A stretch of 63,953 nt of DNA, the filler included, from Collodictyon triciliatum (Eukaryota): the NCBI GenBank assembly GCA_043381765.1. It is 11 parts of 11 records of this genome, joined end to end, with 100 filler letters (N's around TTAATTAATTAA, not from the genome) between each part and the next. Parts side by side here need not be neighbours in the genome. Positions count along the whole stretch, not along the records: positions 19,375 to 25,725 come from JBHJMP010004520.1; 10 more parts are not named here. One strand, written 5' to 3'. Below are positions 5,778 through 62,645 of the stretch, piece after piece. The notes below the pieces were generated by a model that searched no databases, was not told the DNA's origin, and saw only the letters and a program-made list of their open reading frames with translations. A program made the translations under genes and the position numbers. Numbering within the stretch: the first letter of the stretch is position 1; each line of letters begins with the position of its first letter.

Positions 5778-6405
5778 CTATTAATAAGCAGTTAGCATGT
5801 TTAACTTTTTAAAAATGTAAAAGGATTTACGTCCCATGGACATATTTTTATTCTTTTTACATAAAAATCAGACCATTCAATTTTATTGCGTAAGTTTCTT
5901 TTTTCTTTTACTTTCACTATTATAATAACTATTTGTAGGATTTTCTGTGGTCGCGCAGAATTATAAAAAGAAATTGAGCCAAAAATACGTTGACTTGTGT
6001 TGTTTTCGTGAAAGCAAATAATTGATTTATACTAAATCTCGCCACACTTATCAAAATAAATAAATAAACATTTGGACTAGAATTAAAAAAACACCGAAAA
6101 ATCCAGAATAAAAGTAAAAAATAAAAATAAAAATAAAAATAAAAATAAAAAATAAAAGAATCAATAAAAATAAAAATAAAAAATAAAAGAATCAAATAGT
6201 AAAGAATAAAAAGAATAAAAAGAATAAAAAGAATAAAAAGAATAAAAAGAATAAAAAGAAAAAAAGAAAAAAAAAGAAAAAAAAAAAAAAAGAAAAAAAG
6301 AAAAAAAGAAAAAAAGAAAAAAAGAAAAAAAGAAAAAAAGAAAAAAAGAAAAAAAAGAAAANNNNNNNNNNNNNNNNNNNNNNNNNNNNNNNNNNNNNNN
6401 NNNNN

Positions 6406-6417
6406 TTAATTAATTAA
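6406..6417. other. Artificial contig linker TTAATTAATTAA flanked by Ns (stops in all six frames)
   Basis: The same linker occurs at 6406, 12865, 19319, 25770, 32219, 38654, 45099, 51544, 57988 and 62590. Confidence 0.98.
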
Positions 6418-6767
6418 NNNNNNNNNNNNNNNNNNNNNNNNNNNNNNNNNNNNNNNNNNNNAAAAGAATAAAGAAATAAAAGAATAAAGAAATAAAAGAA
6501 TAAAGAAATAAAAGAATAAAGAAATAAAAGAATAAAGAAATAAAAGAATAAAGAAATAAAAGAAATAGAGGTATAAACAAAGAAAGAACGAAATGCATTT
6601 AAAACAAAGAAAGAACGAAATGCATTCAAAACAAAGAAATGTAGCCTATTTTAGCATTAGTGCATTAAATTCGAATAAAGGGAAAACCATATAAGCGCAC
6701 AAATTTCTCCAGACGATGTCATTTTGTATTTCCAATTATTGCACGTGATTCACTTTCTACAAAATAG

Positions 6768-11914: not shown

Positions 11915-12920
11915 ACCAAAGTTTATCTTTGTTAATTTTATTTTCCCCTTCTTTCAGCTGACAAGCTTTCTATTTCACCAAATGATATGCACAAAATGCA
12001 ATTAATCTCGTTTGGTTTGGTTCCATTCAGTTACACAGCCTGATGAAAAGGCTGTTCTGTTTTTTTATTCATATATTGATGTACCTTTTCCAAATATCAT
12101 TTCTGATTTCAAAGAAGCCAAATAGCTAACGTGTCACGATTTATTACAAAGAACCTGAAAAAGTCGTGGGCGCTCTGGATCTTAACTTGTGTGTATCTTC
12201 AAGAGCTTCCAACCTCGCCGCCAAGTATGAATTGAACCTTAATTATTCTACTCCAGTTTCTTTTTCATATTTTCCTCTTTTTCATAGGTTTACCACATAT
12301 ATTTATACAAACACCTGATAATATTATCGCATTCACGAATTAAGCGTGTTCCTTGATAACTTTTGCTATTCGCTATATCAACAGCATAAATCCCTCTCTT
12401 ATTTTAATTTCTCTGATAACATTTTTGAAAAAAATAAAAATAAAAACAAAAATAAAAACAAAAAACAAAAAACAAAAACAAAAACAAAAACAAAAAAATA
12501 AAAAAACAAAAATAAAAAAACAAAAACAAAAATAAAAATAAAAACAAAAACAAAAATAAAAACAAAAATAAAAACAAAAATAAAAACAAAAATAAAAACA
12601 AAAACAAAAATAAAACAAAAATAAAACAAAAACAAAAACAAAAATAAAAACAAAAAAACAAAAACAAAAAACCACAACATAGTGCCAAGCCATTCGAAGA
12701 TGTGCTAGATAAGGATATTATAGATATTTCGGTACTTAGGGCATACTCAACAACAGGTTTTGTGAATTTGCGGCACCAAAATGATAAAATATAGATACTC
12801 TTAGCTAGTGAATGTACACANNNNNNNNNNNNNNNNNNNNNNNNNNNNNNNNNNNNNNNNNNNNTTAATTAATTAANNNNNNNNNNNNNNNNNNNNNNNN
12901 NNNNNNNNNNNNNNNNNNNN

Positions 12921-18465: not shown

Positions 18466-19557
18466 TAAAGAAGAAAAGAAATACATAAATAAAGAGATCA
18501 AGAAATAAAGAAATAAAGAAATAAAGAAATAAAGAAATAAAGAAATAAAGAAATAAATAAATAAATAAATGATATAATTAAATAATCGACCTTGTATTCG
18601 AAATGGAATATTTATCGCCTAAACAGCAAAAGGATAAAAAAAAATTAGAAAAAAAAGAAGAGGTAAAACAAAGAAGGTGAACGTTTATACTACCTCCTGA
18701 AAAAAGCACGCTGCGCAGCGTTCAAGAGGCTGGGCAATCAATAAGATAAATAGCCCATTGTTGAAATAAAATAGTAGAGTGAAAAAAAATGCAGGAAAAG
18801 GAAGAAAATCATGATCGTTTGAAAGAGTTGCTTGTGAACAAATAAAATAGTTAAATAGACATGTTAATATTCAATGTCTGCAACTTTGATTTTTTCGAAT
18901 AGCTTATTTCATCATTTCAAGCTAGTTTTTTTTTTGTGTGTTTTTTGTGTTTTTTGTGTTTTTTGTGTTTTTTGTGTTTTTTGTGTTTTTTGTGTGTTTT
19001 TTGTGTTTTTTGTGTTTTGTGTGTTTTTTGTGTTTTTTGTGTTTGTGTGTTTTGTGTGTTTTTTGTGTTTTTTGTGTTTTTTGTGTTTTTTGTGTTTTTT
19101 GTGTTTTTGTGTTTTTTGTGTTTTTGTGTTTTTCTTTTTCTTTCTTTTTTCTTTTTTCTTTCTTTTTTCTTTTTTCTTTCTTTCTTTTTTCTTTCTTCTT
19201 TCTTCTTTTTTTCTTTTTTCTTTTTTCTTTTTTCTTTTTTCTTTTTTCTTTTTTCTTTTCTTTTTTTTTTTCTTNNNNNNNNNNNNNNNNNNNNNNNNNN
19301 NNNNNNNNNNNNNNNNNNTTAATTAATTAANNNNNNNNNNNNNNNNNNNNNNNNNNNNNNNNNNNNNNNNNNNNATAAAAATAAAAATAAAAATAAAAAT
19401 AAAAATAAAAATAAAAATAAAAATAAAAATAAAAATAAAAATAAAAATAAAAATAAAAATAAAAATAAAAATACAAATAATAGCAATAAGAATCAGATAC
19501 TTCACTCCTTTAAATGGTGAGAAATTAAAAACGAAAGGAATAAGTACCATCATTATT

Positions 19558-22365
19558 TCAACTTTAGCATTTGGGTACATATGCGAATAAAATTGAAGGT
19601 ATTGAAAAACGCAGTTTCTGCCACGAACAAAAGCCTCTTTCAAGGTAATATTATGCGAGCCATCGGATAGTGCATCCTTGACTATGTTTAAGTATAAAAA
19701 TAAATTCATTTGATACATTTTAAGTAGTAGAATAATTAATTTTTTTATTAAAAATATTAAACATAGCTAGGAGTTCCTCGTTGATTTTGGGTGAGGTATT
19801 TGTATGATAATTAGCGTACACCCCATATCCAACATTAAATCATACTAATTTCTTCCATTGTTTTCGATACCAAGGTCGCGATTACTTTCTGATTCATCGC
19901 AGGTGGAAATAAATCGGGATAAAATTGCAAAAGCTGTCTCGGATCAACATCGCTTTTCTTAAAGTTAACAAGAGCTTGATCAAAATCAAGATCGCAGTAA
20001 AATGCTATAGCTACATCTGTCATCAACTGGCAAACAACTTCGCTCTGTATGTAAAATAAGCTTAGTACATGCAGAAAAGGCTAACTTACATAGTGCATGA
20101 ATTTAACAAATAATCAAATTGTCATCACCTCAATATTTCCTTGGCTGTCAAGCAATTTTAATGCCGTGTTGTACTGCTTAAGAGAGATAGCCTCTCGCAC
20201 CTAATCAATTCGGCTTAATACCTTGAACGAAATAAAAAATGAAAATGAAAATGAAAATGAAAATGAAAATGAAAATGAAAATGAAAATGAAAATGAAAAT
20301 GAAAATGAAAATGAAAATGAAAAACCAAACTTAATTACAAACACCTCAGTAAAGGTTCACATTTGGGCTTTTTTTTTTGCCTAGGATGTAACATACTTGC
20401 ATACGAAGAGGGACCAGGGCTAAGCAAGACAGTTTTGATGATGAAAGAATATAAATAAGTTTATCTCCTGGGGCTATGGCTAGAGGAGAAGGATATGCTA
20501 TAGTCTGTAAAGTCTTCTGCTCCTCCAGTGCATATACATCAATAGCTCGATTCATGGCCGATATAACATATCCCTTCCACTCACCTAGGTTTTATTTTGA
20601 GAGGGGAAAATACCATTTATTATACGGCATGGTTTAAATCACTTTCTCAAGGTCATTTGAAAACCATACAAAATTCTTTTGGCTTTGATGAGAAGCTTAG
20701 TGGTGCTCTTGATGGTTGCCCCTTTTCAGTGCACATGACAGCTAATTCTGTTTCAGGTGCATATAAAGTGATTCAATTCTTGCTGGAGTGAAAGTAGCAT
20801 TTAAATATGGCCATTTGCCTTTCTTATTTTGATTTTGTAGAATATTACATACGTTCAAATAGATACATGAATTCATTGGTCCTTTGTATTGATTTGAGGA
20901 GAGGAGGCTTATCTGTGATAGGCTGCAGCTCCTCAATTTCTCTACTTAATGAATTCAATATGAAAAAAATTTTCTTCGTTCCAATCAATACGTAATCTCC
21001 TATGCTTGCCATGCTTAGTGCAGTATTGGTGATTGTGTATTCCTAATAATGTTTGTTAAGTTGATCTAGAATATGTTGCAAATATGATTCGATTGGTAGT
21101 AATCAAAGTGTGTTTATAATGAGAATAAAGATCATGATACATAAGCTGATAACTATGTGTTTTTGTTCTCGTTGTTTACCTGGACACATTCCATTTTTTG
21201 TTCCTTTATGTAATACTTGGAAAGTCTTTTCTTCGTGGATAGATATAAGATGATCAAGTCATCCTTCGATGTCACGGAGATACACTCAACATTCTTAATC
21301 CCGGGTGCAGTGCAAATCGGTTCAAGGGTGAGCATGTCCAGCATATGAACGTTTCCATCTGAATTATATCGATAAAGCAAATTGATAAAGCAAACCAAGA
21401 AGCAAATCAATCAAAAAAAAAAAAAGATGATGGAAATCACACAATGTCACATAAAGGAACATTAAAGACCAGTGAATATACGGAATAATAAAACAAAAGA
21501 TTGAAAATGGTAATAAATATGAGAAGAACCGCATAGGACTAAAACAGCATTTGCGCTTGGTATTGCTTCGATCCGTTCTACATTTTTCTTGCCATTGGCG
21601 AGAGAGCGCTTGGCGATAAGCATCAGCTCCGACGTTGGCAGAGTCTAAATTATAAAAATAGTAAAAAAAAAATCATTTATTGTATCCAACATAATTTAAT
21701 TCTCAGTATGAAACAATAGAATCACCATATTAAAGATTGGGCAGTGTGTGTTTTAGAAGAAAAAGAGGAAAAAGAGGAAAAAGAGGAAAAAGAGGAAAAA
21801 GAGGAAAAAGAGGAAAAAGAGGAAAAAGAGGAAAAANNNNNNNNNNNNNNNNNNNNNNNNNNNNNNNNNNNNNNNNNNNNNNNNNNNNNNNNNNNNNNNN
21901 NNGAAAAAGAAGAAGAAAAAGAAGAAGAAAAAGAAGAAGAAAAAGAAGAAGAAAAAGAAGAAGAAAAAGAAGAAAAAGAAGAANNNNNNNNNNNNNNNNN
22001 NNNNNNNNAAAAAGGACGAACTATATTATGGTAAAAAATAAAATGAAATACCGCCCCAGAAAACGATCTTTTTGTGGACACCTGCTCACGGCGATATAGA
22101 TAAATATGTGAGTCATCAGAACCCACATATATCTGTGGCTCTGTTCGCAAAACACAGTTAGTTAATACGTTAGGCGAATAGAAGTTTTTATTTATTATTT
22201 GTTGGTTTTTTTATTAATTTTTTTTTTTAAAAAAAAGGAAAGATGGGCCATAATAAATAGCTGATCGAAAAGAAAGTGGGGAATAAACCCACCAATGACG
22301 GCCAAGGAAACTCCTTTGTGAGGAAGTTGCTCGAATAGGTAGATGTTTTCGAAAATAGTTGGCAT
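19558..22365 (-). CDS. Vps39/Vam6 or TGFBRAP1-like protein (CNH domain), multi-exon, 3' truncated by the contig end
   Basis: ATG 22365 MPTIFENIYL.., IYVGSDDSHIYLY, VERIEAIPSANAVLVLC|DGNVHMLDMLTL, IDVYALEEQKTLQTI, LALVPLRMQ, FDQALVNFKKSDVDPRQLLQFYPDLFP. Confidence 0.8.
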
Positions 22366-22834
22366 GACTACAGCAAAAGATCTGGGCGTGTCCCTCCTTC
22401 TGCACCAGTATTCTGCCAAAGAAAAGAAAAAGAAAGCAATGAGCCAGAAACACACACACATACAGACAAGAGGGTATATATTTATAAAAGATGATTAGAG
22501 GTCACAGATACCAGCAGCATTTACAACCACAAGTAGCTATAGAAATCGTGGAAGCCAGCAGGAGAAAATTGTAAGACATAGAACCGGGAGGATCGGGTGC
22601 ATTGACGGGCCTTTTGTTTGTTAACTGGCTGATTCATCTTTTCACTTATTCCATCTCATTCCATCTCATTTCGTTTTTTTTTTTTTGTTTTAAAAAAAAA
22701 GCAATATTATATTTGCGAATGAAACGTTTCTTAAAATGCATTATACATCGTCATATGTTCCATCCCCCCACCCCTGTTCTCCTCTTTTCCCTTGCTCCCA
22801 TTCTTACTATCTTACTTTTCTTTTCATTTGTATA

Positions 22835-22990
22835 CTAGAAGGGGTATATCAATCGAAAGATTGATAAACCTGGTGCGCTAGTACCCAAGGTCTCACCACT
22901 TTTTTTAAACAAAGGTTGCGTAGCATCGAAGGCTGCCAGGAAAGACCCGACAGCCTATTATTCTAGAGGAAGGTGTATGCATATTTTGAA
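22835..22990 (-). ncRNA. Putative Fanzor omegaRNA scaffold / element 3' end
   Basis: Three consecutive hairpins at and after the Fanzor C-terminus (22931-22955, 22871-22898, 22843-22870), ending in CTAG at 22838-22835. The position matches TnpB/Fanzor omegaRNA organisation. 5' boundary uncertain. Confidence 0.6.
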
Positions 22991-24889
22991 GAATGGAAAG
23001 AACTTTCTTGAGTATTTTATTAGCGCTGTTAAAGTCCCTTGTCAAGGATACACTTTGTTTGCTTTCTGAGCGATTGCATTCTTTACATATGAGATATCTA
23101 TACACTTTTTTTTTGTATTTCCTTTCAGTGTCATGTATCCCAGTTTCTTTTCGCAGTTGCGACACATCTTGGAGATTCTAAATTCAACTACACTAACTGC
23201 TTCAAAACGTTTGGATAGTATTTTTCGTAATCCTCTTCCGATTGCTGGCATAAAATAGTTTCAACTGACATTTTCTGCTCCAGTATCCATACGCCAGTAC
23301 AACATCCCGCCAAATGTCTTTTCGATTCGGTCCATAAACAATTCTTCACTTCGTTTTGTATTATCATATTGTCTCCATCTCATCTTTCGAAAAGTTACTT
23401 GTTCATACAATTTAGATAATTCTCTCTGGTATCTTGATTTCATAGATACTTATTTTCGAAATTTTTCATAATCGACAGCGTATGAATTATGTTTACTCAA
23501 TTCTGTCTCTAAATCGATGAAAGATACTCTTGATGTCTCAAACGGCTGATTCTCTTCAAAAAACCTGGAATAAAAGAAACAGCACTTTGTAAACATGTTG
23601 CCGTGCATATCCCTGAAGCTTCGTACTTTTCTTTTTTTCTCGCACAAGAGTATTTTGTGATTTTAAAGAGATTTGCTATCATGTATTGTTTGGTGCCGTG
23701 TAACGTGATTTCTTACCTGTCTCATCCACCATGTAAACCAAATATACTTGCCTGCGTCCACTCAAACTATTTTTTTTCGCTAATAAAGATAAATGCTCCT
23801 CGAAACTTCATCTATATAAACATATTCTTGAGGTTTTTTTAAATTGGATTTCGAATTTGAAATACCTTTCTTCTCAAACAATAATGACACCGTCAAGCCG
23901 TCTGTTTGTATCATGTACTTGAAATTGTAATCCCTTTGATGAAACCCCTTTTCTTCGTTTCAAAGAACTTATCCCATAGTTTCTCTTTGCGTCTTGATAT
24001 ATTCTTCAGTAATAATGTTTTCCAGATAATACTAATAGACCTATCTAACATACAGCATCTAGAGTAATATGACATGGTATATTGTCAGTTCTTTCAGAGA
24101 TTGGTTGAAACAGTTTGGTACCAATGTCCTCAAAAATGGGATTCATGTAAATCAGACATGGAATGTGCTTATTTGGATTGGCTTTGGCATCATATTCGAT
24201 ACCTTTTACAATATCGCTGGGAATGATATGATGCAAATGCGTTGTAGCCCATCCTTATATTGTTCCAGTATTTCGAGATTCTTGAAGATGGCTTTTTTTT
24301 TTTAACTTTTGTAACATTGCCTTTTTAATAGCTTCCGTAACATTCTCATCTTTAGGTACTGTTTGATTTATAAAGCGCAGTAACCTCTTTGCAAAATGCT
24401 CCTCAATGCTATTATGATAAGCTGTTAACATTTGATTCGCCAAGTACGGTAATACGCGAGACAGTTCAACCAACCGAGAGCATTCTTCTCGGGACAAAAG
24501 GAATCGAAAATCATTGAGATAAAAAGTCATCATGTCTTTACTCATTTCTGTTTTTTTTTTTTTTTTTTAATTTTTTTTTTTTTTTTAACTTGTGGGTCTA
24601 TCTTGTGGAACTATTCCAACTTTCTTTAAAGCGTACAAAAAAAACATTTCATCGATTGTTGGGAGTTGTTGTAATTTCAATATGTAACATCTTGCAAACA
24701 GATAAGTGTTGTAACCAAGTTATGACACAATGAAATCGTATCGTTGATTTTGTCATAGTTATCCGCATTCTTTGCAATCGACTTTAGATATGTTTTCACA
24801 TTTCGATAGTCTGGTTTAACATATTTTATATTCTCATACCCAAGACGTTTTCTTTTCTTTATCTGAAAATTTTTGGTTTACTTTTTCAT
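22905..24889 (-). pseudogene. Fanzor1 (eukaryotic TnpB-related RNA-guided endonuclease), disrupted by stops and frameshifts
   Basis: Fragments in order: KKRKR..VKTYLKSI, YLFARCYIL..LPTIDEMFF, YLANQMLTAYHNSIEEHFAKRLLRFIN, KLFQPISERT..HITLD, IQTDGLTVSLLF, RuvC-I IV*VDAGK (D 23756-23758), ETELSKHNS..DYEKF, RKMRWRQY, VLAYGYWS, MPAIGRGLRK, RuvC-II VEFRISKMCRNC (E 23183-23185), CKEC, RuvC-III TRDFNSANKI (D 23034-23036). Confidence 0.9.
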
Positions 24890-25630
24890 TTAGAAAATCT
24901 ACCTAGTTTTCAAATTTAATAAAACTTAAGTCAATCTGTCAATTTAATAATAATAAAAATAATAATAATAATGAAAAACTGCATAAAATCAATTTATGTA
25001 AAATTAAGCATCTACCGAGACTCTCAAAATATGCACATTGTGGCAAACAAACACACATAGTTTTTTTAACAAGTGATTTGAGACAAAACGCTGAGAACCG
25101 ACTCGGCGAGTTCGAAAGGACGGCCGTATAGCAATTGTGATTGAAAGTTAACATATCGGCCCAAACAACATGATTACCGCCGCAAGTGTGGATAGTATGT
25201 TTTTTTGATATGCATGTTTGGTGACAGGTTTATAGGGTGGGTTCTGTCGGGGCCAAGGCAAGGGCTTGTTTGTCATTTTTTGAATTTTAATGATAATATT
25301 GCATAAATGAAAAATAATATAATTGATTATATGAATATAATGAGATTATAAAGTATTTTTTAAACTTATTATATACTAATCATACTATTATATTATTCAG
25401 GTTGTTTCTTGGATTCACCAAAGCTCCTGCTTTTGTCAATCCATATTTAATTCGATGGTTTTTTTGTGCAATAAACGGCTTTATATGGGTACACCTTCGC
25501 TGTATAAAAAGTGTTGTGCCTTGAAGGCGTAAAACCAAGTTTCTCACAACCCCTGCAATGAAGTTTATCCATTTACAGGCTGAATGAGAACGAATAGAAA
25601 GGAAAGAAAAAGTTTAAGAAAAGAAAAAAG

Positions 25631-25674
25631 AACATCTTCATCATCCTGCACAAAATTGAAAGGAAGAATAAAAA
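25631..25674 (+). mobile_element. Third copy of the retrotransposon 3' end
   Basis: AACATCTTCATCATCCTGCACAAAATTGAAAGGAAGAATAAAA, flanked by AAGAAAAGAAAAAAG at 25616-25630 and 25675-25689. Confidence 0.65.
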
Positions 25675-26009
25675 AAGAAAAGAAAAAAGAAAAAAGAAAA
25701 AAGAAAAAAGAAAAAAGAAAAAAGANNNNNNNNNNNNNNNNNNNNNNNNNNNNNNNNNNNNNNNNNNNNTTAATTAATTAANNNNNNNNNNNNNNNNNNN
25801 NNNNNNNNNNNNNNNNNNNNNNNNNATCTTTTTTATCTTTTTTATCTTTTTTATCTTTTTTATCTTTTTTATCTTTTTTATCTTTTTTATCTTTTTTATC
25901 TTTTTTATCTTTTTTATCTTTTTTTATCTTTTCTTCTTTTCTTTTCTTTTATCTTTTATCTTTTTTTTCTTTTTTTTCAACCGTAATCAAATAGAATTTA
26001 TCGCAATAG

Positions 26010-29179: not shown

Positions 29180-31117
29180 TCATCCTTTCTTGCGCCTCCT
29201 CTCACTGGAGACACGCCTCCAGTCCTTTTTGCTCTTTGCCTGCCTCCCATTGACCGCTTCAACCGCACCCACAGCTCCTGAATGCGGCTCTGGCCTGCAC
29301 GAGGCAACTGTAAACTCGGACCACATGAGCGACGCATTGTTCTTTGCAGGAGAGTCTGGCGGACTGACAAGGAGACCCTTCCGCAGCCTCTTCAAGGCAG
29401 CCTCCTCCCGGCCCTCCCAGGCAGAGCTGTCCAAGCCGCCGGACACTCTCAGATCCGAGGACGGGATATCGGCCAGATCCACGGGCTCCAGGACAGCCTG
29501 ATACATCTGCCGGATGCGACGGAGATGGAAGACGTCGGGCAGAATCTTGTCGAGGGGATACGACAGGGCCTTGGCAGCAACCATCATGTGCAGACAGGCA
29601 GCGACCCGCGGCGAAGAGGCGTCCTGCAAGCCGCCGGCAAACGGCGCGGCCTCTGTGCCCGAAGCGCATGTGCCGCTGCAGCTGCATCGCAACCTGCCGA
29701 GATGGACCGAGAAGCGGGCGGGGCCGACAAGGACGTAGGCAGCCTCGGACGAGACCGGCGCCACCTCGAGCGACCTGCCCGGGAAGAGATCCGCACCCAG
29801 CACGCGGAGAATCTCGTCTGCAACGGCCTGCCCGGGCGCGTAGACGCGGACGCTGCGGCGGTGATGCTCCGTCTGGACGTGGCGAAGCAGCTCAAAGACC
29901 ATGTCGAACCACCCGAGCGCGGCAACGCGGCCCAGGAGACGCGGGACACTCTCGTCGGCGGGCAGCAGAGCATGGAGCAGGACGGCGCGCTTTGCCGGCA
30001 CAAAGGCGGCAGCCCAGAGCCTCGGGTCGAGCTCGCACGCGGCGTCCCACGTGTCGGGCCACTTGAGGCGGAGCTCCTCTGCGAGCGCGGCATACTCGGG
30101 GGCGGACGCGGCGAGGGCTGCGCGGTGCAGGAGCGCAGAGGCCTCCGGCGTCGTGTGCCGGGAGAGAAGCGCGAGAACCGCGTCCCACGCGTAGACATGC
30201 GCGCACTCGGGCAGGACGCGGGCGGCGGCGGCAACCAGCGCTTTGGGGCGGGCAGAGACGAGCGCGACATCCGCCCAGGCGTGGAAGCCCTGCGCCCCGG
30301 CCTCTGCCCGCAGCGTCCTGAGGAACCACGCCCACGTCTCGGCCGTTGCTGCGCCGCAGACCGCCGCAAAGCACACGACCGCCGCGCGCCCTTCGCCGTC
30401 GGCCCCGGCCGCAAGCAGCAGCGTCCCGCCCTTCGCCGTCTGCGCCGCCGCCTCCCACAGCCGCACGAGCGGCAGCCCCAGCCGCAGATACGCCCCGCCC
30501 GTCGCCGGCTGCACAAACGCCCGCCCAAACGCCTCGCCGCCCGCCACAGCCGCAGCCGCAGTCGCAGTCGCGTCCACAAACGCCGCAGACCCGGGCATCG
30601 CCGCGCATATCCGCTCGCACAGCCCCGGCAGCAGCCGCACATCGCCGCCCCCGCCCGCCATGGCCCCCGGCCGCTCCGCCAGCAGCTCCTGCACCCCGCG
30701 TCCGACGCCGCTGCCCACGTGGATGCCGAAGCGCCGCCCGAAAAAGTCGCGGATTTGGCGCACCGTCATCCCCGTCGTGGCCGCAAACGCGCTCTCGGCC
30801 TGCAGCGACTTGGCCAGCCAGTGCTTGTCTGCCGGGCACAGCCGCCTGTGCAGCTCCGGGTCGCACGTGTGCTGCTTGCAGACCGCCGTCAGGACAAGTC
30901 CCTGCTGCGTCCCTGCTCGTCGCCCAGTGATGCGGAAGCTGCAGTCGAGCGAGTGGCACCCCACTGAGTACAGGTTCGCTTGCGAGTAGTGCACCCGCGG
31001 GGTTCGGTTCGTGAGCACGCAGTGTGTTGTGATCGCTTCCTTCAGCTCCTCCACGCTGCTGAACTCGGCCCCAACTTCGATCACCGGCTCGTAGTTCGTC
31101 TGTGTTGTCTCCCCCAT
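29180..31117 (-). CDS. MuDR/MULE transposase-derived protein with SWIM zinc finger, catalytic residues altered
   Basis: Intact intronless 645-aa ORF: IEVGAEFSSVEELKEAI..C..C.FRI..HTC (MuDR DNA-binding domain), GGTLLLAAGADGEG..FA..ETWAWFL (MULE domain), CSC..CLH (SWIM). Confidence 0.85.
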   Translation of the reverse strand: MGETTQTNYEPVIEVGAEFSSVEELKEAITTHCVLTNRTPRVHYSQANLYSVGCHSLDCSFRITGRRAGTQQGLVLTAVCKQHTCDPELHRRLCPADKHWLAKSLQAESAFAATTGMTVRQIRDFFGRRFGIHVGSGVGRGVQELLAERPGAMAGGGGDVRLLPGLCERICAAMPGSAAFVDATATAAAAVAGGEAFGRAFVQPATGGAYLRLGLPLVRLWEAAAQTAKGGTLLLAAGADGEGRAAVVCFAAVCGAATAETWAWFLRTLRAEAGAQGFHAWADVALVSARPKALVAAAARVLPECAHVYAWDAVLALLSRHTTPEASALLHRAALAASAPEYAALAEELRLKWPDTWDAACELDPRLWAAAFVPAKRAVLLHALLPADESVPRLLGRVAALGWFDMVFELLRHVQTEHHRRSVRVYAPGQAVADEILRVLGADLFPGRSLEVAPVSSEAAYVLVGPARFSVHLGRLRCSCSGTCASGTEAAPFAGGLQDASSPRVAACLHMMVAAKALSYPLDKILPDVFHLRRIRQMYQAVLEPVDLADIPSSDLRVSGGLDSSAWEGREEAALKRLRKGLLVSPPDSPAKNNASLMWSEFTVASCRPEPHSGAVGAVEAVNGRQAKSKKDWRRVSSERRRKKG

Positions 31118-32289
31118 GGGCCTGGCGTTCGTTTAAATTAGTGCATTTGTTTTGTTTTATTTTTTTCTGGTTTATCCTTTTCATTTTCTTTCCTTAGTTT
31201 ACTTTGTAGATTTGTTGTTGTTGGAATCGCGTCAAGACTTTGACAGACATCGCGGTGGCGGTCGAGTGAGGCGCTGCAGCTTGGCAGCCAGATTCATCTG
31301 CACATCTGATTCGCTGTGTTTCGGCTGCAGGTACCGTACTCTTTATGTGTCTGTCTGATTGTGGAAGATACGTTTTCCGTCGCTTTTGTACTGTTTGCGA
31401 GGTGGCACTGGGGAAGTCTTGTTAGTGTCCTTGAGCATTATTTTGTCTAGATTGGATGTAACTCCACAGCATCGCAAACCCGGCTAGAGGTTGGCGAGAC
31501 TTACACATGTCCATCACCCTCTTTGCCCGAAGGCTCTGAGTCGTGGACACGTGCGTGCGGCGCCTCGCTGCTGCAGAGCCCTTTTCACAGTTGGTTTACT
31601 CAGGTTTTGACGCACTGTCCTCATCGACTGTCCTTTCCTTGTGGAATCAGCAATCTCGGCACCACAACAACCCTGAGATGACTTAAGCATGCTTGTCATA
31701 AGAACAACTTTCCATTAATCTGTAATTGTTTTCTTATTGGCTGGAGTTTGCGTGTGTTGCTGATGGGTGCTATATTTCGACTTCCACTTGTGGGTTGGCA
31801 CTTGTTTTGCAGTTTGCACAAATGGAACGTTGAAGTTTGTAGCTGCTGGGTAGCATGAGTATCGATACTCTTTGTATTAATTGTAGATACATTATGCATA
31901 ATTTATTTATAAGTGCGATTTTATAAGGCTCAATTAATCGATGGATACAAAATCATTTATATTCCATATCTGAAATAACGGTATTTGAGTGCTTTGCGAA
32001 TGCAGATCGAAGCTCATCGCGCCCATCAAATCATTTCCCAGCGAGGAAAAAAAGAAAAAAAAGAAAAAAAAGAAAAAAAAGAAAAAAAAGAAAAAAAAGA
32101 AAAAAAAGAAAAAAAAGAAAGAAAAAAAGAAAGAAAAAAAGAAAGAAAAAAAGAAAGAAAAAAAGAAAGAAAAANNNNNNNNNNNNNNNNNNNNNNNNNN
32201 NNNNNNNNNNNNNNNNNNTTAATTAATTAANNNNNNNNNNNNNNNNNNNNNNNNNNNNNNNNNNNNNNNNNNNNAATTTTTTTTATTTC

Positions 32290-38609: not shown

Positions 38610-38708
38610 NNNNNNNNNNNNNNNNNNNNNNNNNNNNNNNNNNNNNNNNNNNNTTAATTAATTAANNNNNNNNNNNNNNNNNNNNNNNNNNNNNNNNNNN
38701 NNNNNNNN

Positions 38709-41219
38709 NGGGACTATTGGGTGAATAAAACGCCTTTCAACAATCTTTCCCTTAAAAGAACTTTTTGCTCCACCAAATGCCTTTTTCAGTATTGTCCAAA
38801 TGACAGGGAGAGCCACAGATAATAGTTTCACAGCGATATAGCCATTCGAAATCATCACCAACACAATCAAGACAGCTTCAACCGCCCCATTAATTTCGGA
38901 ATATCGGAAAAGCGGGCTCAGCATCAAGGTGAAGTAGAGAACCAACAAAGACTGTAGTTGGGTTGCTTTCAAAGTGCTAGACACAAACGGCTGATAGTAA
39001 ATTGTGGATGCTATCACGATAAATATCAACCATATTCCAAAATATATCTGTAATGAGGACGGAAAAAACACACTTATCATCACGACAAAAAGCTTTTGCA
39101 TCATTAGTACAATTTCCCAATAGTAGCACTTGTCTGTGTATCCATCCACAACAAATCGCAGCAACAGATACGCATCAGAATGTTCGTCCAACAAAGACTT
39201 TCTCTTGTAAATCATGTATGCCAGCAATATGACAGGCCCCATGAAACAATACAGAGTCACATATACAAATGATATATTTCTCCAATCTGCATAATCGGAA
39301 TCATGACATCTTATTGACATATCTTGCCTCAGGTAGGTATCTTCTCCCAAATTTCGACATGGAAATATCACAGATACATTTGCAGTTATTGTTGGATGAA
39401 TAAAAAAGCACATGACAAGTGCTGAATGAAAAAAATCCCTGCGCAGCTGTTGGAAGTAGAAGCCGGAAAAATTATTCTTCATTTTGTAGGCATTCCAGAA
39501 TATCTTGGCTAACTCTGCTACAAACACAATTGAAATCAAGATCAACGGCATGAGCATGGAATAAAAAACTTTTTCATAGACACTCCATCCAAACTGGCAA
39601 TCCATGGGAAAGCTGTCCACGGAGAAGGAGAAGGAAAATAATGCTGGTATTTGCATAGCTGAAATCAACGTGGAGCTCCAGTTCACATCAAAGTTGGCCA
39701 AATATGACAAAACTTGAAAGTGTGTAGACAGAGTTTTAATCATTTGGACGTTATCATTTTTAGGCTCTCTAGATTGCTCTATCATAAATACTGTGAATCC
39801 AATTGGTATTACAACACTTAGAAACACCAAAAACCCAACAGCATTGCTCGCTGGGCATTTCATGCAAATAATTCCAGTTTTTCCATGTCCTGTCTCACAA
39901 ACACTACACAAAGGCCCTGTATAACCTGATGCACACGTACCGTTTCGCCCTTTGCAAGCATCTTGATTGAGACACTTGTATGCCACTTACTCATCGCGCT
40001 CGCTTTTTTATTGCCAATATCCAGGAGCTACCTTAACATCACTGGTGCCATCGCAAATGAACCCATAGGGGCACTTGATACACTGCCAACTTTTTCCGTG
40101 CAGATAAAATGAAGGAATGCGCTTGCAATCATAGATACTTGTAGATGCATTGTTTAGATTATATGTTCCAGGGCCGCAGGTTATGCAAGCACTGGAGCTT
40201 GTTGAGCCAAATTTTGGATTGTATGTTCCAGCTGGGCATGATTGACAATTTTCTTGACCGGTTGGTGGGTTGTATGTTCCAGCCGCACATGAAAGACAAG
40301 CAGGCTTACCAGTTGATGGGTTGTATGTTCCAGCCGCACATGAAATACACGCACTGGAGTTTGTTGAGCCAAATTTTGGATTGTATGTTCCAGCTGGGCA
40401 TGATTGACAATTTTCTTGACCACTGGATGGATTGTATTTGCCAGGAGGGCATAAAGAACAAGATGACGTTCCACCAGCACTATAGCTTCCAGATGGGCAT
40501 ATTTGACAAGACTTTGAAAATTAATCATAAAACTGACCAGCAGAAAAAATTAACTCTGGAGCATCTCAGATTTTGATTCTATTATCATAACTTCCAGAGA
40601 CAATATTTGGTCCGTCAGGAGTAACAGCAACACTATAAACACTGCTTGTATGACCAGTCAATGTGCGAATCAAAGCTCCATCAGAAAGATTCCAGATTTT
40701 GATAGCATAATCCCAGCCTCCAGAAACGATTTTTGAACTATCAGGAGTAACAGCAACACTGTAAATCTCATATGTATGACCAGTCAATGTGCGAATCAAA
40801 GCTCCATCAGAAAGATTCCAGATTTTGATTGTATTATCCAGACTTCCAGATACAATTTTTGAGCCATAAGGAGTAACAGCAACACTGTGAACACTGCCAG
40901 CATGACCAATCAATGTGCGAATCGAAGCTTCATCAGAAATTATCCAGATTTTGATTGTATGATCGTAACTTCCAGAAACAATTCTTGAGCCATCAGGAGT
41001 AACAGCAACACTGTAAACAACACCGGTATGACTAGTCAATGTGCGATTCGAATTATCTTGTCCTTCAACAAGACAAAATTGGCAATGGAGCATCAATCCT
41101 AAATATATATCAATTAAAATCTATGTAATTTGAAGTCAATAAAATTAAAACAATTAAAATATCATTAATAACTCACCCAAAAGCAACAGAGCTGCAAACG
41201 ACTTTGAGTTTAATATCAT
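38709..41219 (-). pseudogene. Signal peptide - WD40 x4 - Cys-rich (CPxGTY, GCC2/GCC3-like) repeats - multipass membrane domain, with four in-frame stops
   Basis: Exon 1 41219-41177, intron 41176-41099, then a single frame 41098-38709 with TGA 40568-40566 and TAA at 40523-40521, 40010-40008 and 39989-39987. The C-terminal region has CASGYTGPLCSVC followed by many TM helices (YYWEIVLM motif). Confidence 0.8.
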
Positions 41220-44200: not shown

Positions 44201-45154
44201 AGGTGAGGGGTATGGGCGTGAAGCTGTGGATAAATGATTGCAGTTCAGTCAAGGGGAGGGGTGGTGAATCATTCAGCGGCAAACTGGGTTTTTAGCGAGA
44301 ATATGGTATGTGTTTTTCGATTTGGATATTATAATGGTTCATATGTTGGTTAGTTGGTTTTTTTTTAAAAAATTCACATTTGATGCAAAAGTGTATCTAT
44401 TGATTTAATTAAAACGGAATTTAAAAAAAGGATACCAAGGGTATGCAGATAACAAAAAATTTCTAGTAGATACGTAATTTAAAGATTTTTCTATAGATTT
44501 AGTATTCACAAGGCGATATGTGATACGATTATTGAAAAATAAACGACGTAGCATGACTATTCTGTAGGCAGACCATTTCATCTCTGTTAAATCTCCTTAG
44601 TAAATATATAGCTGATATTATTGTATTTATTGTAAGTATTACAATATTGATTCCATGTATTTTATGCTATTAATAAATCTATCAACTTAATAATAAAATA
44701 CCTAGGATGGCAAGACTCCGATGATAATTCTTAATTTTATAGATTTTTGTACTATCATCATAAGTAATTGTTTTACAAGAGAAATATTTTTAATTATAAA
44801 CTATTCGACTTTATGCATGCTGTATTTTATATGTTAAATAGGTAAAGTTTTCAAATTAAATAGTCTCCTTACCGCAAAAAAAGGATAGATGACTTTTGAT
44901 TACAAAAATTTACCACGAATATTATTTTATTTATTTTTTGGTCATGAATGACTCGACAAAGACATACTTACTTCCACACACAACACAACCCAACACCCCC
45001 ACCGTACGTTCTTAGACCTTTACTTCAGACCATCGGGAAAACTAGGAGCCGCCGNNNNNNNNNNNNNNNNNNNNNNNNNNNNNNNNNNNNNNNNNNNNTT
45101 AATTAATTAANNNNNNNNNNNNNNNNNNNNNNNNNNNNNNNNNNNNNNNNNNNN

Positions 45155-46709
45155 TTCACATAATCAGTGTGAACTTTTATATCTTGGACTAATGTTCCAT
45201 CAAAAAAATTCCAAACTTTGATTGTTTTGTCTGAACTTCCGGACACAATTTTTGAATTATCGGGAGTTAAAGCAAGGCTCGTTACAATTCCAGTGTGCCC
45301 AGTTAACGTACCAGTTACAGCTCCATCTAAAATGCTTGTAATTTTGATTGTTTTATCGCTACTTCCTGAAATAATTTTTGTTTCATCTGTAGTAACAGAG
45401 ATGCAGTTCACTGATTCAGAATGTATTTCAAATGATTGAATAAAAGACCTGTCGTCAACATTCCATACTTTTATTGTTTTGTCTGAACTTCCAGAAATTA
45501 CTTTGGAGCTATCTGCTGTTAAAGTTAGTGCGTTAACGACATTAGTGTGTCCAATCAATGACCTAATTAAATTTCCATTTAACAGATTCCATATTCTAAT
45601 GATATTGTCTGAGTGCCCTGATATAAAAATTGATTTTAAATGAGAAGAAATAACACACATAACCCTATAACTTCTGGTGTAGATAGTGCTTCCATCAGAG
45701 AAATTCCAAAGTTTGATTGTTCTATCCCAGCTTCCAGAAATAGTTTTTGAGCCATCAGGAGTAACAGCAATATCGTCAACACGACTGTTATGACCAGTCA
45801 ATGAGCGAATCATAGCTCCATCAGAAAGATTCCATATTCTAATAACCCAATCATCGCCACCAGAAACAATTTTTGAACCATCAAGGGTTACAGTAATGCT
45901 ACGCACCCAAGTAAGACCAATCCAGGTGCGAATCAAATTACCGTCAGAAATATTCCAAATTTTGATTGTTTTATCATCACTTCCAGAAACAATTTTTGAA
46001 CCATCAGGAGTAACGGCAACACGGTTAACAACATTATTATGACCAGTCAACGTGCGAATCAAAGCTCCATTAGAAAGATTCCAAATCTTGATTGTATTAT
46101 CACCGCTTCCAGAAACTATTTTTGAACCATCAGGAGTTACAGCAACACTGACGACAGAACTAGTATGGCCAGTCAACGTGCGAATCAAATTACCGTCAGA
46201 AATATTCCAAATTTTGATTGTATCATCACCGCTTCCAGAAACAATTTTTGAACCATCAGGAGTAACGGCAACACTATTAACAACATTATTATGACCAATC
46301 AACGTGCGAATCAAAGCTCCATCAGAAAGATTCCAAATCTTGATTGTATTATCACTGCTTCCAGAAACAATTTTTGAACCATCAGGAGTTACAGCAACAC
46401 TGACGACAGAACTAGTATGGCCAGTCAACGTGCGAATCAAATTGCCGTCAGGAATATTCCAAATTTTGATTGTATTATCCTGGCTTCCAGAGACAATATT
46501 TGAACCATCGGAAGTAACAGCAACACTACGAACATTACCAATATGACCCGTTCCAACTGTGTAAATCGAAGAAACTTGTGCAGAACTCGACGAAATGTAC
46601 TCAAGGATGGTGATTGCTATAAACCATTTGTTATAATAGAAATGAGAATAATTCAGAATGAAAAGGGCTTACCCAGTATTATTTGCTGAATATGTAGACT
46701 TTTCCGCAT
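45155..46709 (-). CDS. Signal-peptide WD40 protein with at least 11 highly similar repeats, 3' truncated
   Basis: Exon 1 MRKSLHIQQIIL (ATG 46709), intron 46672-46617, then AITILEYISSSSAQ and repeated TLTGHxxxVxSVAVTPDGSKIVSGSxDxTIKIWNxxDG. Confidence 0.85.
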
Positions 46710-51499: not shown

Positions 51500-51600
51500 N
51501 NNNNNNNNNNNNNNNNNNNNNNNNNNNNNNNNNNNNNNNNNNNTTAATTAATTAANNNNNNNNNNNNNNNNNNNNNNNNNNNNNNNNNNNNNNNNNNNNC

Positions 51601-51775
51601 ATTTCGGAATTGGATGATCGATTTATCCAAATCCACAAATCCGTTATTGTCAATAAAGACCCCCATCGGGCGCATCAGTCTCAATGACAACACCGTGACG
51701 ATTCAGAAAAGGACCTTTCAGATCGGCCGCTCTTTTCGCCGACTGCTCGTTGAAAAGTACAAAGAACGTTTATAG
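51601..51775 (+). CDS. C-terminal end of a bacterial LytTR-domain response regulator (apparent +1 frameshift in the C-run near 51660)
   Basis: LDDRFIQIHKSVIVNKD then IGRISLNDNTVTIQKRTFQIGRSFRR..ERL* (TAG 51773-51775). Confidence 0.7.
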
Positions 51776-51785
51776 TAAATCCCGT

Positions 51786-53687
51786 ATGAATACTTTACCC
51801 TCCACCTTCATTTTCATTTTTCTTCGATCTGCATTTGTGATATACTTTTTGGGTACCTTCACTACCCAAGCCCAAACCTTTACTTTTTCCGATACTTACC
51901 CCACCAATAACGTGGATAGCCTCGAAAATTGGCTAAAAACCCACCCGCAGCCGACGCAGGAACGGCTGAAAAACCTGATACGGTTAAAAAGAACCTATTT
52001 TTTTTCGTACCCTGAACGAATAAATCGCGATACGCTCGAAATGCGCCAACTATCCCAACGGCTCAATCAGCCTGTGGGAAAGGCAATTGTCACCTTCTGG
52101 AAAAGTAACAACTTTAATGAGCTATACCAAGTGTTTAAAACATTTGAAGCCCTCAAAGATACTTCGGGTACGGTCTACACCCTTTCGGGTTTGGCTTCCT
52201 CCAATTACACAATTAATGCGTTGGACAAAGGCGATAAATACGCCGCGCAGGATTTTCTACAAAAAGCCCGTCAATTGTTGAAGGCGCGTTTTAATGCTCA
52301 CGATTATTTTATTCTTGAAAGGGCTTTGTTGATGCATCAACTCAGTACGGACGAAAGCAACCTTAAAGAACATTTAGCATCGCTTCAAAAAGCCCTTGCG
52401 CTATCCAAAAGCAAGCCTGAGTACGAATACATACGGATAACACTCAAAAGTTTTATTGGTACTGTTCACGGATATCAGGGCGACTACGCCACCTCTTATG
52501 CTACCTTCAAAGAACTTTTAACCCAACTCAAGCCCGACCAAACCGAGGTAAATCTTCTTCTTTCTCAAAACTTAGCCATGGATTGTGAGGAATTGGGACG
52601 CTACGACGAACGGTTGGCTTTGTGCAACAAAATAGCTGTCTTGCTGCGTAACTATTCCAAAAAAAGCACTCCTTATTTCTTTTTGACGCTATACGAAATG
52701 ACCAAGGAGGAAATGGATCGACGTGGGCGTTACCAAGAAGCATCTGCTTATGGTGACAGCATCGCCACCATGAAGGATATTATCTATGAAAAACAGCGCA
52801 AGGAAAAACTGATTGAATTTCAAGCCCAAAATAAACAAACGCAAATAGCCGAACTTACTTTTCAGCAAACCCAAACCGAAAAGCGCAATCTTTTAATTAC
52901 CTTTTTTTTGATGGCGGCATTGGCCGCGGCCGCGGCGTTGGGCTATTTGGGCTGGCGCTTACGACAATCAAACGCCCGCCTCAATGCGCTCGTATTGCTG
53001 CGCGATGAGTTTATCCGCATCATTGCTCATGATCTGCGCCGCCCGCTGCACGCCTTTTACGGATTGAGTGAGGTATTTGGTAAGCTGCTCCAGCGCGGTG
53101 ACCAACAGGCCATCGTTAAACTCTCACAGTCTATTGACCAATCGGGGCTGTACATCCGTCAAATGCTCGACAATCTGCTTTATTGGGCATTGTCCCAAAA
53201 AGGAAAGTTAGTATTCAGCTCTTCTGCCTTTGCCCTTCACCCCCAACTAGCGGCTCTGGTTTCGGTTTACGGAGCCGTTACGGCCATTAAAGGAGTCGCC
53301 CTGGAGTATGATTGTCCCCACAACCTAATGGTCTGCACCGATGTTAACGCCTTGGACCTTATCCTGCGCAATCTCATTGACAACGCCACCCAACACACTT
53401 CTGCGCAGGGCATTATCCGCCTTGAAGCAACCCCTTCAGCAGATCCCGAACAGGTATCTGTCCGAATCAGTGATACCGGCAAAGGAATGACGGAAACGCA
53501 ACTGCAATTGGTAAGGGAGGTATTAACTGCTCCCCAACGGTTTCAACCCAAACAGGAAAACCTGGGCTTGGGCCTTATTGTTGTCAGCACGTTTGCCCAG
53601 CAGGCGGCGATTGCAATAACTGTACAAAGCCAAGAAGGAGCAGGAACCATATTTGAGATCAATGTGAAACGCGCATCTCAGGGGTAA
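51786..53687 (+). CDS. Bacterial sensor histidine kinase (helical periplasmic sensor, TM, HisKA, HATPase_c)
   Basis: IIAHDLRRP (H box), LDNLLYWA, ILRNLIDNA (N box), ISDTGKG (G1), GLGL (G2). Likely start is ATG 51786. Confidence 0.92.
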   Translation: MNTLPSTFIFIFLRSAFVIYFLGTFTTQAQTFTFSDTYPTNNVDSLENWLKTHPQPTQERLKNLIRLKRTYFFSYPERINRDTLEMRQLSQRLNQPVGKAIVTFWKSNNFNELYQVFKTFEALKDTSGTVYTLSGLASSNYTINALDKGDKYAAQDFLQKARQLLKARFNAHDYFILERALLMHQLSTDESNLKEHLASLQKALALSKSKPEYEYIRITLKSFIGTVHGYQGDYATSYATFKELLTQLKPDQTEVNLLLSQNLAMDCEELGRYDERLALCNKIAVLLRNYSKKSTPYFFLTLYEMTKEEMDRRGRYQEASAYGDSIATMKDIIYEKQRKEKLIEFQAQNKQTQIAELTFQQTQTEKRNLLITFFLMAALAAAAALGYLGWRLRQSNARLNALVLLRDEFIRIIAHDLRRPLHAFYGLSEVFGKLLQRGDQQAIVKLSQSIDQSGLYIRQMLDNLLYWALSQKGKLVFSSSAFALHPQLAALVSVYGAVTAIKGVALEYDCPHNLMVCTDVNALDLILRNLIDNATQHTSAQGIIRLEATPSADPEQVSVRISDTGKGMTETQLQLVREVLTAPQRFQPKQENLGLGLIVVSTFAQQAAIAITVQSQEGAGTIFEINVKRASQG

Positions 53688-54243
53688 TCCGTCTGAAACA
53701 CCGATTTTTTCAGGCATTTTTCACTGACAGATATGAGTTGCCCGACTCTTTTTCTCTTCACATTCAACCACCGACACACCCTTTCCGTTTAGAAAGAATG
53801 ACGACAATTGGACGAATGTGCTTTCATTGATCGGTATCCTGCACAGGGCTTCAGCAATAAAAACCTGCTTTAAAAAGATTTGAACAGCGCTCGATACTGT
53901 CTCACAAGGGGCAGTTATTGAGCGCTGTCACAATGAATGCACCGGACGGTTCAACGGTCATTACCCGCGTTTCCATTGCCCTGTGTATTGATGCTGCAAA
54001 CTCCTCAATATCCGGGTGCCCATCCGCTTTCCTGCTCCCGAATTCTTCCGGCCACACTCTTTAGCATGGCTTTTGTTATCCTTTTATGCACTCAAAAAAT
54101 ATCCTTACTCAGCCGCTTCCCTTGGCAGTTCTTCCGCAAATCACTACAGGTTATCACCAAATTGGCACATAAATACTGCCCCTTGCACGAATGTTGATTA
54201 CCGGTTGGAATATCAATATCACATGATCACTGATTGTACATCT

Positions 54244-62491: not shown

Positions 62492-62645
62492 TTTTAAATT
62501 TTTTTCCCTTTTATAACCTTTATAAAGAACCAGTCTTCCTCAATTNNNNNNNNNNNNNNNNNNNNNNNNNNNNNNNNNNNNNNNNNNNNTTAATTAATTA
62601 ANNNNNNNNNNNNNNNNNNNNNNNNNNNNNNNNNNNNNNNNNNNN

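Follow-up and report, generated by a model that had tools for sequence, protein, structure and literature searches.

A very probable Fanzor1 pseudogene in Collodictyon triciliatum, with its nearest intact relatives found in viral and metagenomic contigs

A stretch of Collodictyon triciliatum DNA (GenBank assembly GCA_043381765.1) carries on its minus strand, at 22835–24889, a series of short coding fragments that had been proposed to derive from a Fanzor1 element, and the locus raises the questions of whether a Fanzor1 gene is present at all, whether it can still give a protein, and whether it belongs to the genome in which it is found. Fanzor1, which occurs in eukaryotes and viruses, is a transposon-borne relative of TnpB that cuts DNA under the guidance of an RNA. 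The whole stretch analysed, referred to here as the window, has 63,953 bases and consists of 11 separate pieces placed end to end, of which the first nine measure about 6.35 kb and the last two 4.5 and 1.3 kb, so that gene context is usable only inside one piece. We conclude with high confidence that 22835–24889, running from an ATG at 24889–24887 to the end of the last fragment, is a dead copy (a pseudogene) of a Fanzor1 gene, the decay and proposed history of which are described below.

The identity of the stretch is apparent from several comparisons. First, a family hidden Markov model (HMM) was built from 43 intact relatives and scored on every six-frame fragment of the window that is at least 20 amino acids (aa) long, 1,847 in total. 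The top 12 matches are all on the minus strand within 22908–24877 (E values 2e-20 to 0.07), 11 of them have E values of 0.0043 or lower, and the best are at 24048–24254 (E 2e-20) and 24258–24566 (E 5e-18); the next match, located elsewhere in the window, has an E value of 0.2. The Fanzor family signal at 22908–24877 is far above chance. Second, a tblastn comparison of the metagenome protein P0007 (634 aa) with the window aligns its residues 2–603 colinearly from 24856 to 22968 in three frames, with E values of 3e-37, 7e-34 and 1e-10 and no match in the rest of the window. Third, the three solved structures that P0007 matches at E ≤1 are without exception Fanzor1 proteins, those of Spizellomyces punctatus (SpuFz1; E 9.2e-37, residues 14–607), Parasitella parasitica (PpFz1; E 7.2e-34) and Guillardia theta (GtFz1; E 7e-16), with no TnpB, Cas12 or Fanzor2 chain matching it at that threshold. 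Judged by sequence, the pseudogene is homologous over its full length to characterised Fanzor1 proteins in a transitive manner, from the window to P0007 and from P0007 to SpuFz1, PpFz1 and GtFz1. Finally, a HMMER search with the 72-aa fragment at 23042–23260 finds 19 proteins at E ≤1e-3, among them P0001 (136 aa; 71–72% identical over the RuvC-II part) and the full-length P0007. The colinear P0007 alignment, the restriction of its structural matches to Fanzor1 and the clustering of the 12 best HMM fragments bear out both the original assignment to Fanzor1 and the proposal that the minus-strand fragments assemble in order into a full TnpB-like protein.

The motif strings on which that proposal relied are all present in minus-strand stop-to-stop fragments. 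The N-terminal basic patch KKRKR (24845–24859, read directly) aligns to the basic N-terminus of P0007 and is predicted to resemble a nuclear localization signal, a trait of Fanzors according to the available part of PMC10530073. The N-terminal half (23960–24877), whose wedge (WED) and recognition (REC) part is named by analogy with SpuFz1, is interrupted by four frameshifts (near 24709, 24302, 24253 and 24017) and three stop codons (24587, 24569 and 24047); downstream of it are the IQTDGLTVSLLF motif (23876–23911), which matches the family-conserved QTDG.SVSLLF, and the RuvC-I motif VDAGK (23747–23761; Asp at 23758–23756), which is bordered by a stop and frameshifts and aligns with GADPGK of P0007 and DPNK of SpuFz1. 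The canonical RuvC-II site is read as VLAYGYWS (23277–23300), a rearranged site in which Gly replaces Glu; the segment is out of frame relative to both of its neighbours, between frameshifts at 23308 and 23258, and the corresponding family columns Y495, W498 and S499 are invariant and G496 nearly so. The relocated Glu (23185–23183) and the first zinc-finger CxxC follow in EFRISKMCRNC (23153–23185), and columns E530, T533, S534, K535, C537 and C540 are invariant in alignment A1. The second CxxC, CKEC (23076–23087), lies after a frameshift near 23116 in an A-run, a junction that P0001 runs through in a single frame, and RuvC-III is represented by TRDFNSA (23022–23042; Asp at 23036–23034).

Taken by column, these motifs make up the catalytic signature of a Fanzor. 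The Asp residues of VDAGK and TRDFNSA align, in P0007 and SpuFz1, with the motifs DPGK and RD, as in a split RuvC domain; the Gly of AYGYWS falls on G496 and the Glu of VVEFRISK on E530, positions that are 34 residues apart in P0007; and CRNC and CKEC, the two CxxC pairs of the zinc finger, fall on C537, C540, C564 and C567. Jiang et al. describe this combination, in which the canonical Glu position is taken by an inert residue and a conserved Glu is located further downstream, as the rearranged RuvC-II of Fanzors (PMC10530073, available part). The three acidic residues and four Cys that were said to be retained are readable on invariant or nearly invariant family columns.

Can this copy still encode a nuclease? 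Frameshift-aware alignments, which had been proposed as a check, were made to five guides (P0007, P0021, and the ORFs, or open reading frames, of L005, L003 and P0024) and recover a full colinear remnant that begins at 24866–24662 (P0021 is without the N-terminus) and finishes at 22935–22879. The damage totals 11–14 frameshifts and 4–9 in-frame stops depending on the guide. The guides agree on frameshifts near 24709, 24302, 24253, 24017, 23961, 23746, 23308, 23258 and 23116 and on one at about 22925–22964, with a further one to three between 23560 and 23800, and they agree on stops at 24587, 24569, 24047 and 23452; further stops, at 23782/23764 or else at 23681/23678, vary with the alignment path. 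Three codons in from the ATG there is already an in-frame TAA, at 24880–24878. A long insertion relative to P0007 (about 23700–23480) is also coding in P0004. With none of the five guides is there an open frame able to give a nuclease, and with 11–14 frameshifts and 4–9 stops no protein can therefore be made; this is a pseudogene and not a working family member. The original prediction had called the copy dead, which is upheld, and had spoken of several stops and frameshifts, which was right as to their presence and understated their extent.

The opposite reading, that the gene is alive and only looks broken, through introns, a variant genetic code or homopolymer errors in the assembly, has some points in its favor: Fanzor genes can have introns, as the available text of PMC10530073 indicates, two of the breaks (near 24302 and 23116) are in A-runs, and a poly-A tract at 24594–24553 opens with GT and closes with AG. 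The remnant is nonetheless colinear with its relatives, and its frameshifts are of 1–2 nt, lie mostly outside homopolymers and include no gap of intron size, in comparison with a host intron of about 150 nt. Splicing at the poly-A tract was considered and rejected, as the same frame is present on both sides and the relatives are coding there. A ciliate-type code, suggested by the TAA just after the ATG, was likewise rejected, since it would leave the TGA and TAG stops and many frameshifts in place; with TAA, TAG and TGA all among the in-frame stops, no single reassignment helps, and in combination with the frameshifts no code change restores the frame. Other copies differ at the same sites, which marks these as real mutations, and exons 1 and 2 of the neighbouring gene, which is on the same contig, form a single open frame when joined. 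The living-gene reading is already largely refuted, and we regard it as extremely improbable.

The existence of other copies is apparent from sequencing runs. Contigs of four runs (X1–X4) were aligned at 80% likeness to the stretch up to 25300; contigs of this kind cannot give copy numbers. Run X1 yields 475 contigs (32 at ≥99% identity, 110 at 95–99%, 198 at 90–95% and 135 below 90%), run X4 yields 274 (6, 68, 99 and 101 in the same classes), X3 yields 118 (2, 48, 34 and 34) and X2 yields 22 (1, 4, 1 and 16). The pseudogene is one copy of a diverged multi-copy family. Contig cover extends from about 22885 to 25300, drops sharply at 22788–22884 and is nil in all four runs at 22497–22593, and the multi-copy similarity fades near 22880–22930. 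With cover reaching 25300, the repeated unit therefore takes in at least 410 bp upstream of the ATG; this upstream non-coding stretch (24890–25300, minus strand) is covered by X1, X3 and X4 contigs as deeply as the ORF, with 24898–25090 skipped or replaced in contigs.

These contigs also bear on when the lesions arose. Single-base length differences are present in contigs at the frameshift sites 24709, 24017, 23742, 23692, 23308 and 23257, and all 13 contigs over 24046 (seven from X1, two from X3 and four from X4) differ inside the stop codon at 24047–24045, where, by our reading of the change, they would carry a sense codon. Many of the lesions are therefore private to the window copy or to a subset of copies, and the expectation that further copies exist is confirmed by run contigs that do not have several of them. 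At 23257 the other state accounts for 79 of 167.5 depth in X1, or about half. P0001 reads the AYGxWS segment out of frame and the next segment in frame, as the window does, so the shift near 23258 is shared and already-broken copies were duplicated. It follows from the multi-copy status that the element was mobile or was duplicated, though neither ends nor a transposase are found at this locus.

What do intact relatives look like? In a scan with the family alignment, 273 of 381 candidate stretches from viral contigs, and at least 502 of 598 from metagenome contigs, prove to encode relatives; many of the viral contigs, which are up to 254 kb in length, have the names of giant-virus metagenome-assembled genomes, and both of the two viral records searched contain the major capsid gene of nucleocytoplasmic large DNA viruses (NCLDVs) above the Pfam cut-off. 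Of 158 related loci, 157 have an unbroken ORF that is 520 aa or longer. One 378-aa Fanzor1 fragment, P0005, is labelled '6-pyruvoyl-tetrahydropterin synthase' in one source; its alignment with the family suggests that this label is mistaken.

Conservation at the nucleotide level extends about 50–95 nt beyond the ORFs of the relatives and ends abruptly after ...GGTGTAAA, and the last 33 nt or so of this conserved end recur inverted upstream. These are terminal inverted repeats (TIRs) of about 30 bp, present at both ends of 27 distinct elements: 13 of 2.36–2.40 kb, which from their size would contain Fanzor only, 11 of 3.1–3.8 kb, two of about 4.4–4.6 kb and one odd 620-bp pair. The termini read TTTACACC...GGTGTAAA, and left and right TIRs co-vary between sub-families. 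In one element of the 3.1–3.8 kb class (L001:2637–5952), the TIRs enclose the Fanzor1 gene (L001:4001–5905) together with a 346-aa ORF on the opposite strand, which matches DDE_3 (PF13358, 51.4 bits; L001:2638–3678) and HTH_28 and is by these domains a predicted transposase of the Tc1/mariner-IS630 type; a homologue of the DDE_3 transposase is present in 49 of the 158 loci, and a 69-aa upstream ORF in nine. A complete element comprises TIRs, an optional opposite-strand DDE_3 transposase, the Fanzor1 gene and a covarying RNA at the 3′ end, with the right TIR forming part of the last helix of this RNA. In an alignment of 31 sequences of this RNA, 93.7% of cells pair, compared with 77% when shuffled and 34–55% when slid, both partners change in 13 of the 17 pairs, and none of 500 shuffles reaches the observed score; RNAalifold applied to the seven nearest relatives predicts 39 pairs, 22 of them compensatory, and the last helix again takes in the TIR. 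The 3′ RNA thus has the anatomy expected of an omegaRNA, and a guide function would be consistent with the Fanzor and TnpB mechanism as published (PMC10432273 and PMC10530073, in their available parts).

The position of the window copy among these relatives was examined in a tree of 47 rows, comprising 34 viral rows, 12 metagenome rows and the window read-through with an X at each break; the relatives are 43 rows obtained by cutting 157 ORFs by similarity, plus P0015, P0021 and P0024. The read-through is placed in a nine-row set with L001, L002, L003, L005, L082, L083, P0021 and P0024, with a value of 98 in the Shimodaira-Hasegawa-like approximate likelihood ratio test (SH-aLRT). This placement and the capsid gene in both viral records searched support the suggestion that the copy resembles Fanzor1 of giant viruses, where 'giant-virus-type' says no more than that viral or metagenomic genes are the nearest intact relatives to have been found.

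Several results weigh against the assignment of this locus to a decayed giant-virus-type Fanzor1 element. The tree comes from a quick LG+G4 search, is drawn with a midpoint root, and has viral and metagenome rows only, with no Fanzors from eukaryote genomes; the branch to the window copy is long (1.23) and meets a second long branch, that of P0024. Identity to the intact relatives is modest, at about 30% by tblastn and at best 40% over 511 columns of the tree alignment. None of ten single fragments matches a TnpB-type Pfam family, because the fragments are too short for curated libraries, and PF07282 (the Cas12f1-like TNB family) is seen in all five homologues and exceeds its cut-off in one. 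Against solved structures, the fragment at 23042–23260 has a weak match to the RuvC-II/CxxC motif of Parasitella Fanzor1 (E 0.67) and two other fragments match no Fanzor or TnpB; a word-index protein search with the 103-aa fragment at 24255–24566 places none of 67 candidates at E ≤0.01.

The remaining points on this side concern the surroundings of the gene. Covariance models were built from the 31 RNA sequences (R1) and from the seven nearest relatives (R2) and searched both against the whole window and locally. At the 3′ end of the ORF neither model finds an omegaRNA, the best local score, from within a poly-A tract, being 7.3 bits (E 0.2), and the whole-window searches place no match with E ≤10 at the ORF end; a profile of the 3′ end likewise has no match in the window by nhmmer, and Rfam gives zero matches. 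Inverted repeats in the window are all of low complexity, with no match to the TIR pattern when three mismatches are permitted. No transposase remnant is present in the window, including the stretch upstream of the gene (best E 2.6), and comparison of the L001 transposase and small upstream ORF with the window gives nothing (E ≥1.1). Thus residence in a transposon, as marked by ends or a transposase or both, is seen in the relatives, with 27 elements having both TIRs, and not in the window. By these R1/R2, nhmmer, Rfam, TIR and transposase searches, the omegaRNA, element ends and transposase that a complete element would bring to this locus are not found, and that portion of the original proposal is not supported. 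Neither does the locus have the features of Fanzor2 or an IS607-type TnpB, as no TnpB or Fanzor2 chain is matched at E ≤1 and the partner in the relatives is DDE_3. A likeness near the ORF end to the stem of the relatives, noted by eye (GTCTTTC...AAAAAGT..GAGACC, and a TCAATC/GATTGA hairpin), was not counted as evidence. Finally, none of the listed sequencing runs contains more than a 0.06 share of the words of the stretch, and no RNA run is among those listed; a search for a run with the stretch itself, or for the source reads of this assembly, found neither, so the junction of repeat and host DNA is taken from the assembled contig.

Does the pseudogene then lie in host DNA? It is contained in the piece at 19375–25725, in which the sole N runs are at 21837–21902 and 21984–22008. 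There is no N from 22009 to 25725, and the pseudogene, a 471-bp spacer and exons 1 and 2 of a neighbouring gene are therefore on unbroken sequence. The neighbour (19835–22364, minus strand) has its ATG at 22364 and a first GT-AG intron of about 150 nt from about 22293 to 22142, and joining exons 1 and 2 at GT...AG gives one open frame, reading ...LAVIEPQIYVGSDDSHIYLYRREQ; the presence of this intron makes the DNA eukaryotic. The pseudogene is upstream of this gene in the same orientation, and the distance of 471 bp from its end at 22835 to the ATG at 22364 agrees with the originally stated value of about 470 bp. The Atlas leads for the neighbour, which are leads only, are all eukaryotic, with beta-propeller types for one exon and tetratricopeptide repeat (TPR)/clathrin-repeat proteins of the Vps11/Vps41 kind for another; Pfam has no match to five single exons, and the PDB gives TPR look-alikes or nothing for the exons of the gene. 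These weak leads suggest a candidate HOPS/CORVET-like protein with a beta-propeller and TPR/clathrin-type repeats. The more specific name 'Vps39-like' is plausible from the N-terminus of that family and not established. Of the eukaryotic setting that had been proposed, therefore, the part that depends on an intron-bearing neighbour on unbroken sequence stands, and the Vps39 identity, for which there are weak leads only, does not.

A mis-joined contig, in which the Fanzor segment is a repeat or viral or foreign DNA that is not beside the host gene or not in this genome, has to be weighed against this setting. The assembly is fragmented into contigs of about 6.35 kb and includes one of bacterial type, the element is multi-copy, its nearest intact relatives are viral, there is no cover at 22497–22593 in the four runs, and a poly-A/T tract (22660–22720) separates the element from the host gene. 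The larger tract of poly-A/T and simple repeats at 22594–22787 has a pile-up of contigs, up to 7,550 deep in X1 and very high in all four runs, and is a likely place for assembly joins. On the other side, there is no gap from 22009 to 25725, the pseudogene stretch has 30–37% GC, the same as the adjoining host DNA, and its heavy decay together with hundreds of diverged copies suits a resident eukaryotic repeat, in contrast to the viral relatives, of which 157 of 158 are intact. We consider a mis-join very unlikely and retain the pseudogene as part of the host genome.

The position of the remnant directly upstream of the host ATG, in the same orientation, also suggests that it could have been co-opted, either as promoter or 5′ regulatory DNA for the gene 471 bp downstream or, from its 3′ end, as the source of a non-coding RNA. 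The 3′ end of the coding remnant (22843–22956, minus strand), at the site where the relatives encode their omegaRNA, forms two stable hairpins (22956–22930 and 22870–22843). The fold has a z-score of just −1.95, with seven of 200 shuffles folding equally well; the multi-copy similarity already fades near 22880–22930, and conservation is no more than that of the repeat family, with no sign of selection. Co-option is on this evidence very unlikely, and a dead member of a repeat family remains our reading of the remnant.

How does this dead copy compare with known systems? It has the same domain order end to end as SpuFz1 (PDB 8gkh) and Parasitella parasitica Fanzor1 (9cf0), including a DPxK RuvC-I, an E(F/Y)xTS relocated Glu followed by CxxC, and an RD RuvC-III; these are distant homologues, with no significant direct match from single window fragments, and in contrast to them the window copy is broken and without a detectable omegaRNA, and its nearest relatives are found with DDE_3 inside TIRs of about 30 bp. 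The nearest intact relatives found are Fanzor1 genes on giant-virus contigs, such as L001:4001–5905, and the metagenome gene P0007, which share all of the motifs, a length of about 600–634 aa and a basic N-terminus; unlike the window copy, the giant-virus genes are intact, TIR-bounded (at about 2.4 kb, or about 3.1–3.8 kb with a transposase where checked) and followed by a covarying 3′ RNA, whereas the window copy is about 30–40% identical to them and has none of those flanking features. In Spodoptera frugiperda ascovirus 1a, the available part of 10.1101/2023.08.09.552727 describes a non-autonomous Fanzor1 transposon with short TIRs and an RNA scaffold that includes the TIR; containing only a Fanzor1 of about 600 aa, it resembles the 2.4-kb class of relatives, a likeness drawn by description and not by sequence. 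Its transposon type is called unknown in that part of the source, whereas the relatives here include versions with DDE_3. The Mariner/Tc1-associated Fanzor1 (Fanzor1c) in the available text of PMC10530073 is likewise accompanied by a DDE transposase of Tc1/mariner type, a pairing that 49 of the 158 related loci also show. The prokaryotic TnpB proteins of IS200/IS605 and IS607 and Fanzor2 have the RuvC fold, the zinc finger and a 3′-end guide RNA in common with this family (PMC10432273, available part) and differ in their partners, as there is no serine recombinase or Y1 TnpA here and the relatives carry DDE_3. The Fanzor1 class is already known and catalogued in thousands, and the window copy is an ordinary new member of it; the original remark that the class is known is in accord with the available portions of PMC10432273 and PMC10530073, where Fanzor1 in giant viruses and its Mariner/Tc1 link are already in print.

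A history that is consistent with these data can be proposed. A Tc1/mariner-type (DDE_3) TIR transposon with Fanzor1 and a 3′ omegaRNA, similar to the giant-virus elements, would have entered the host genome, probably by virus–host exchange, whichever its direction, and would have multiplied there and then decayed; broken copies were still being duplicated, as is indicated by at least one lesion in common between copies, alongside others that are private. In intact relatives, by the known mechanism, an RNA overlapping the ORF end and the right TIR would bind the nuclease, and its 3′ extension into the flanking DNA would guide cleavage of matching sites beside a transposon-adjacent motif, an activity that may help the element to persist. 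At the pseudogene locus no part of the RNA-guided machinery is demonstrably working.

The pieces of the window are separated by ten spacers, each composed of 44 N, TTAATTAATTAA and 44 N, at 6362–6461, 12821–12920, 19275–19374, 25726–25825, 32175–32274, 38610–38709, 45055–45154, 51500–51599, 57944–58043 and 62546–62645, and mostly terminate in simple repeats. The contig at 51600–57943 is bacterial in appearance, with long unbroken ORFs and 44–51% GC, a HisKA plus HATPase_c sensor kinase at 51699–53687 and a 1,335-aa ORF at 53992–57999, and could represent contamination or a symbiont in the assembly. A 650-aa ORF at 29180–31132 (minus strand) occupies an island of 59–73% GC in AT-rich surroundings and has a MuDR-type DNA-binding domain (PF03108, 25.1 bits, cut-off 25) and, separately, a faint match to Mutator-like elements (MULEs); it is possibly a foreign or newly arrived MULE transposase. 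Long arrays of near-identical repeats are present on separate contigs, at 40566–41120 and 45103–46668 (minus strand) and at 40008–40520 (minus strand); one type reads GHTSSVxSVAVTPDGSKIVSGS...IKIWN, which we take to be WD40-like, and the other is a Cys-rich CPAGTYNP repeat.

The copy described here is inert and of little direct value in itself. With it, a further eukaryotic genome is seen to contain Fanzor1 remnants, of a family tied to a large radiation of intact genes on giant-virus contigs, and the hundreds of intact relatives, with their clear bounds, TIRs, presence or absence of DDE_3 and covarying 3′ RNA, are candidates for biochemistry, the L001-type gene and its 155-nt 3′ RNA among them. 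The same relatives may name the transposase type of the viral Fanzor1 class that is called unknown in the available part of 10.1101/2023.08.09.552727. More tentatively, the host could have a Fanzor1/mariner-type family that was swapped with giant viruses and active until recently, with some copies elsewhere intact and equipped with their own omegaRNA; we view this as unlikely. If true, it would provide a natural host–virus pair with an RNA-guided nuclease transposon moving both ways, and a new naturally paired nuclease and guide set distinct from the characterised Fanzor1 enzymes. The link between the remnant and the giant-virus-contig genes lends support to the view, already published, that Fanzors are carried from one eukaryote to another by viruses.

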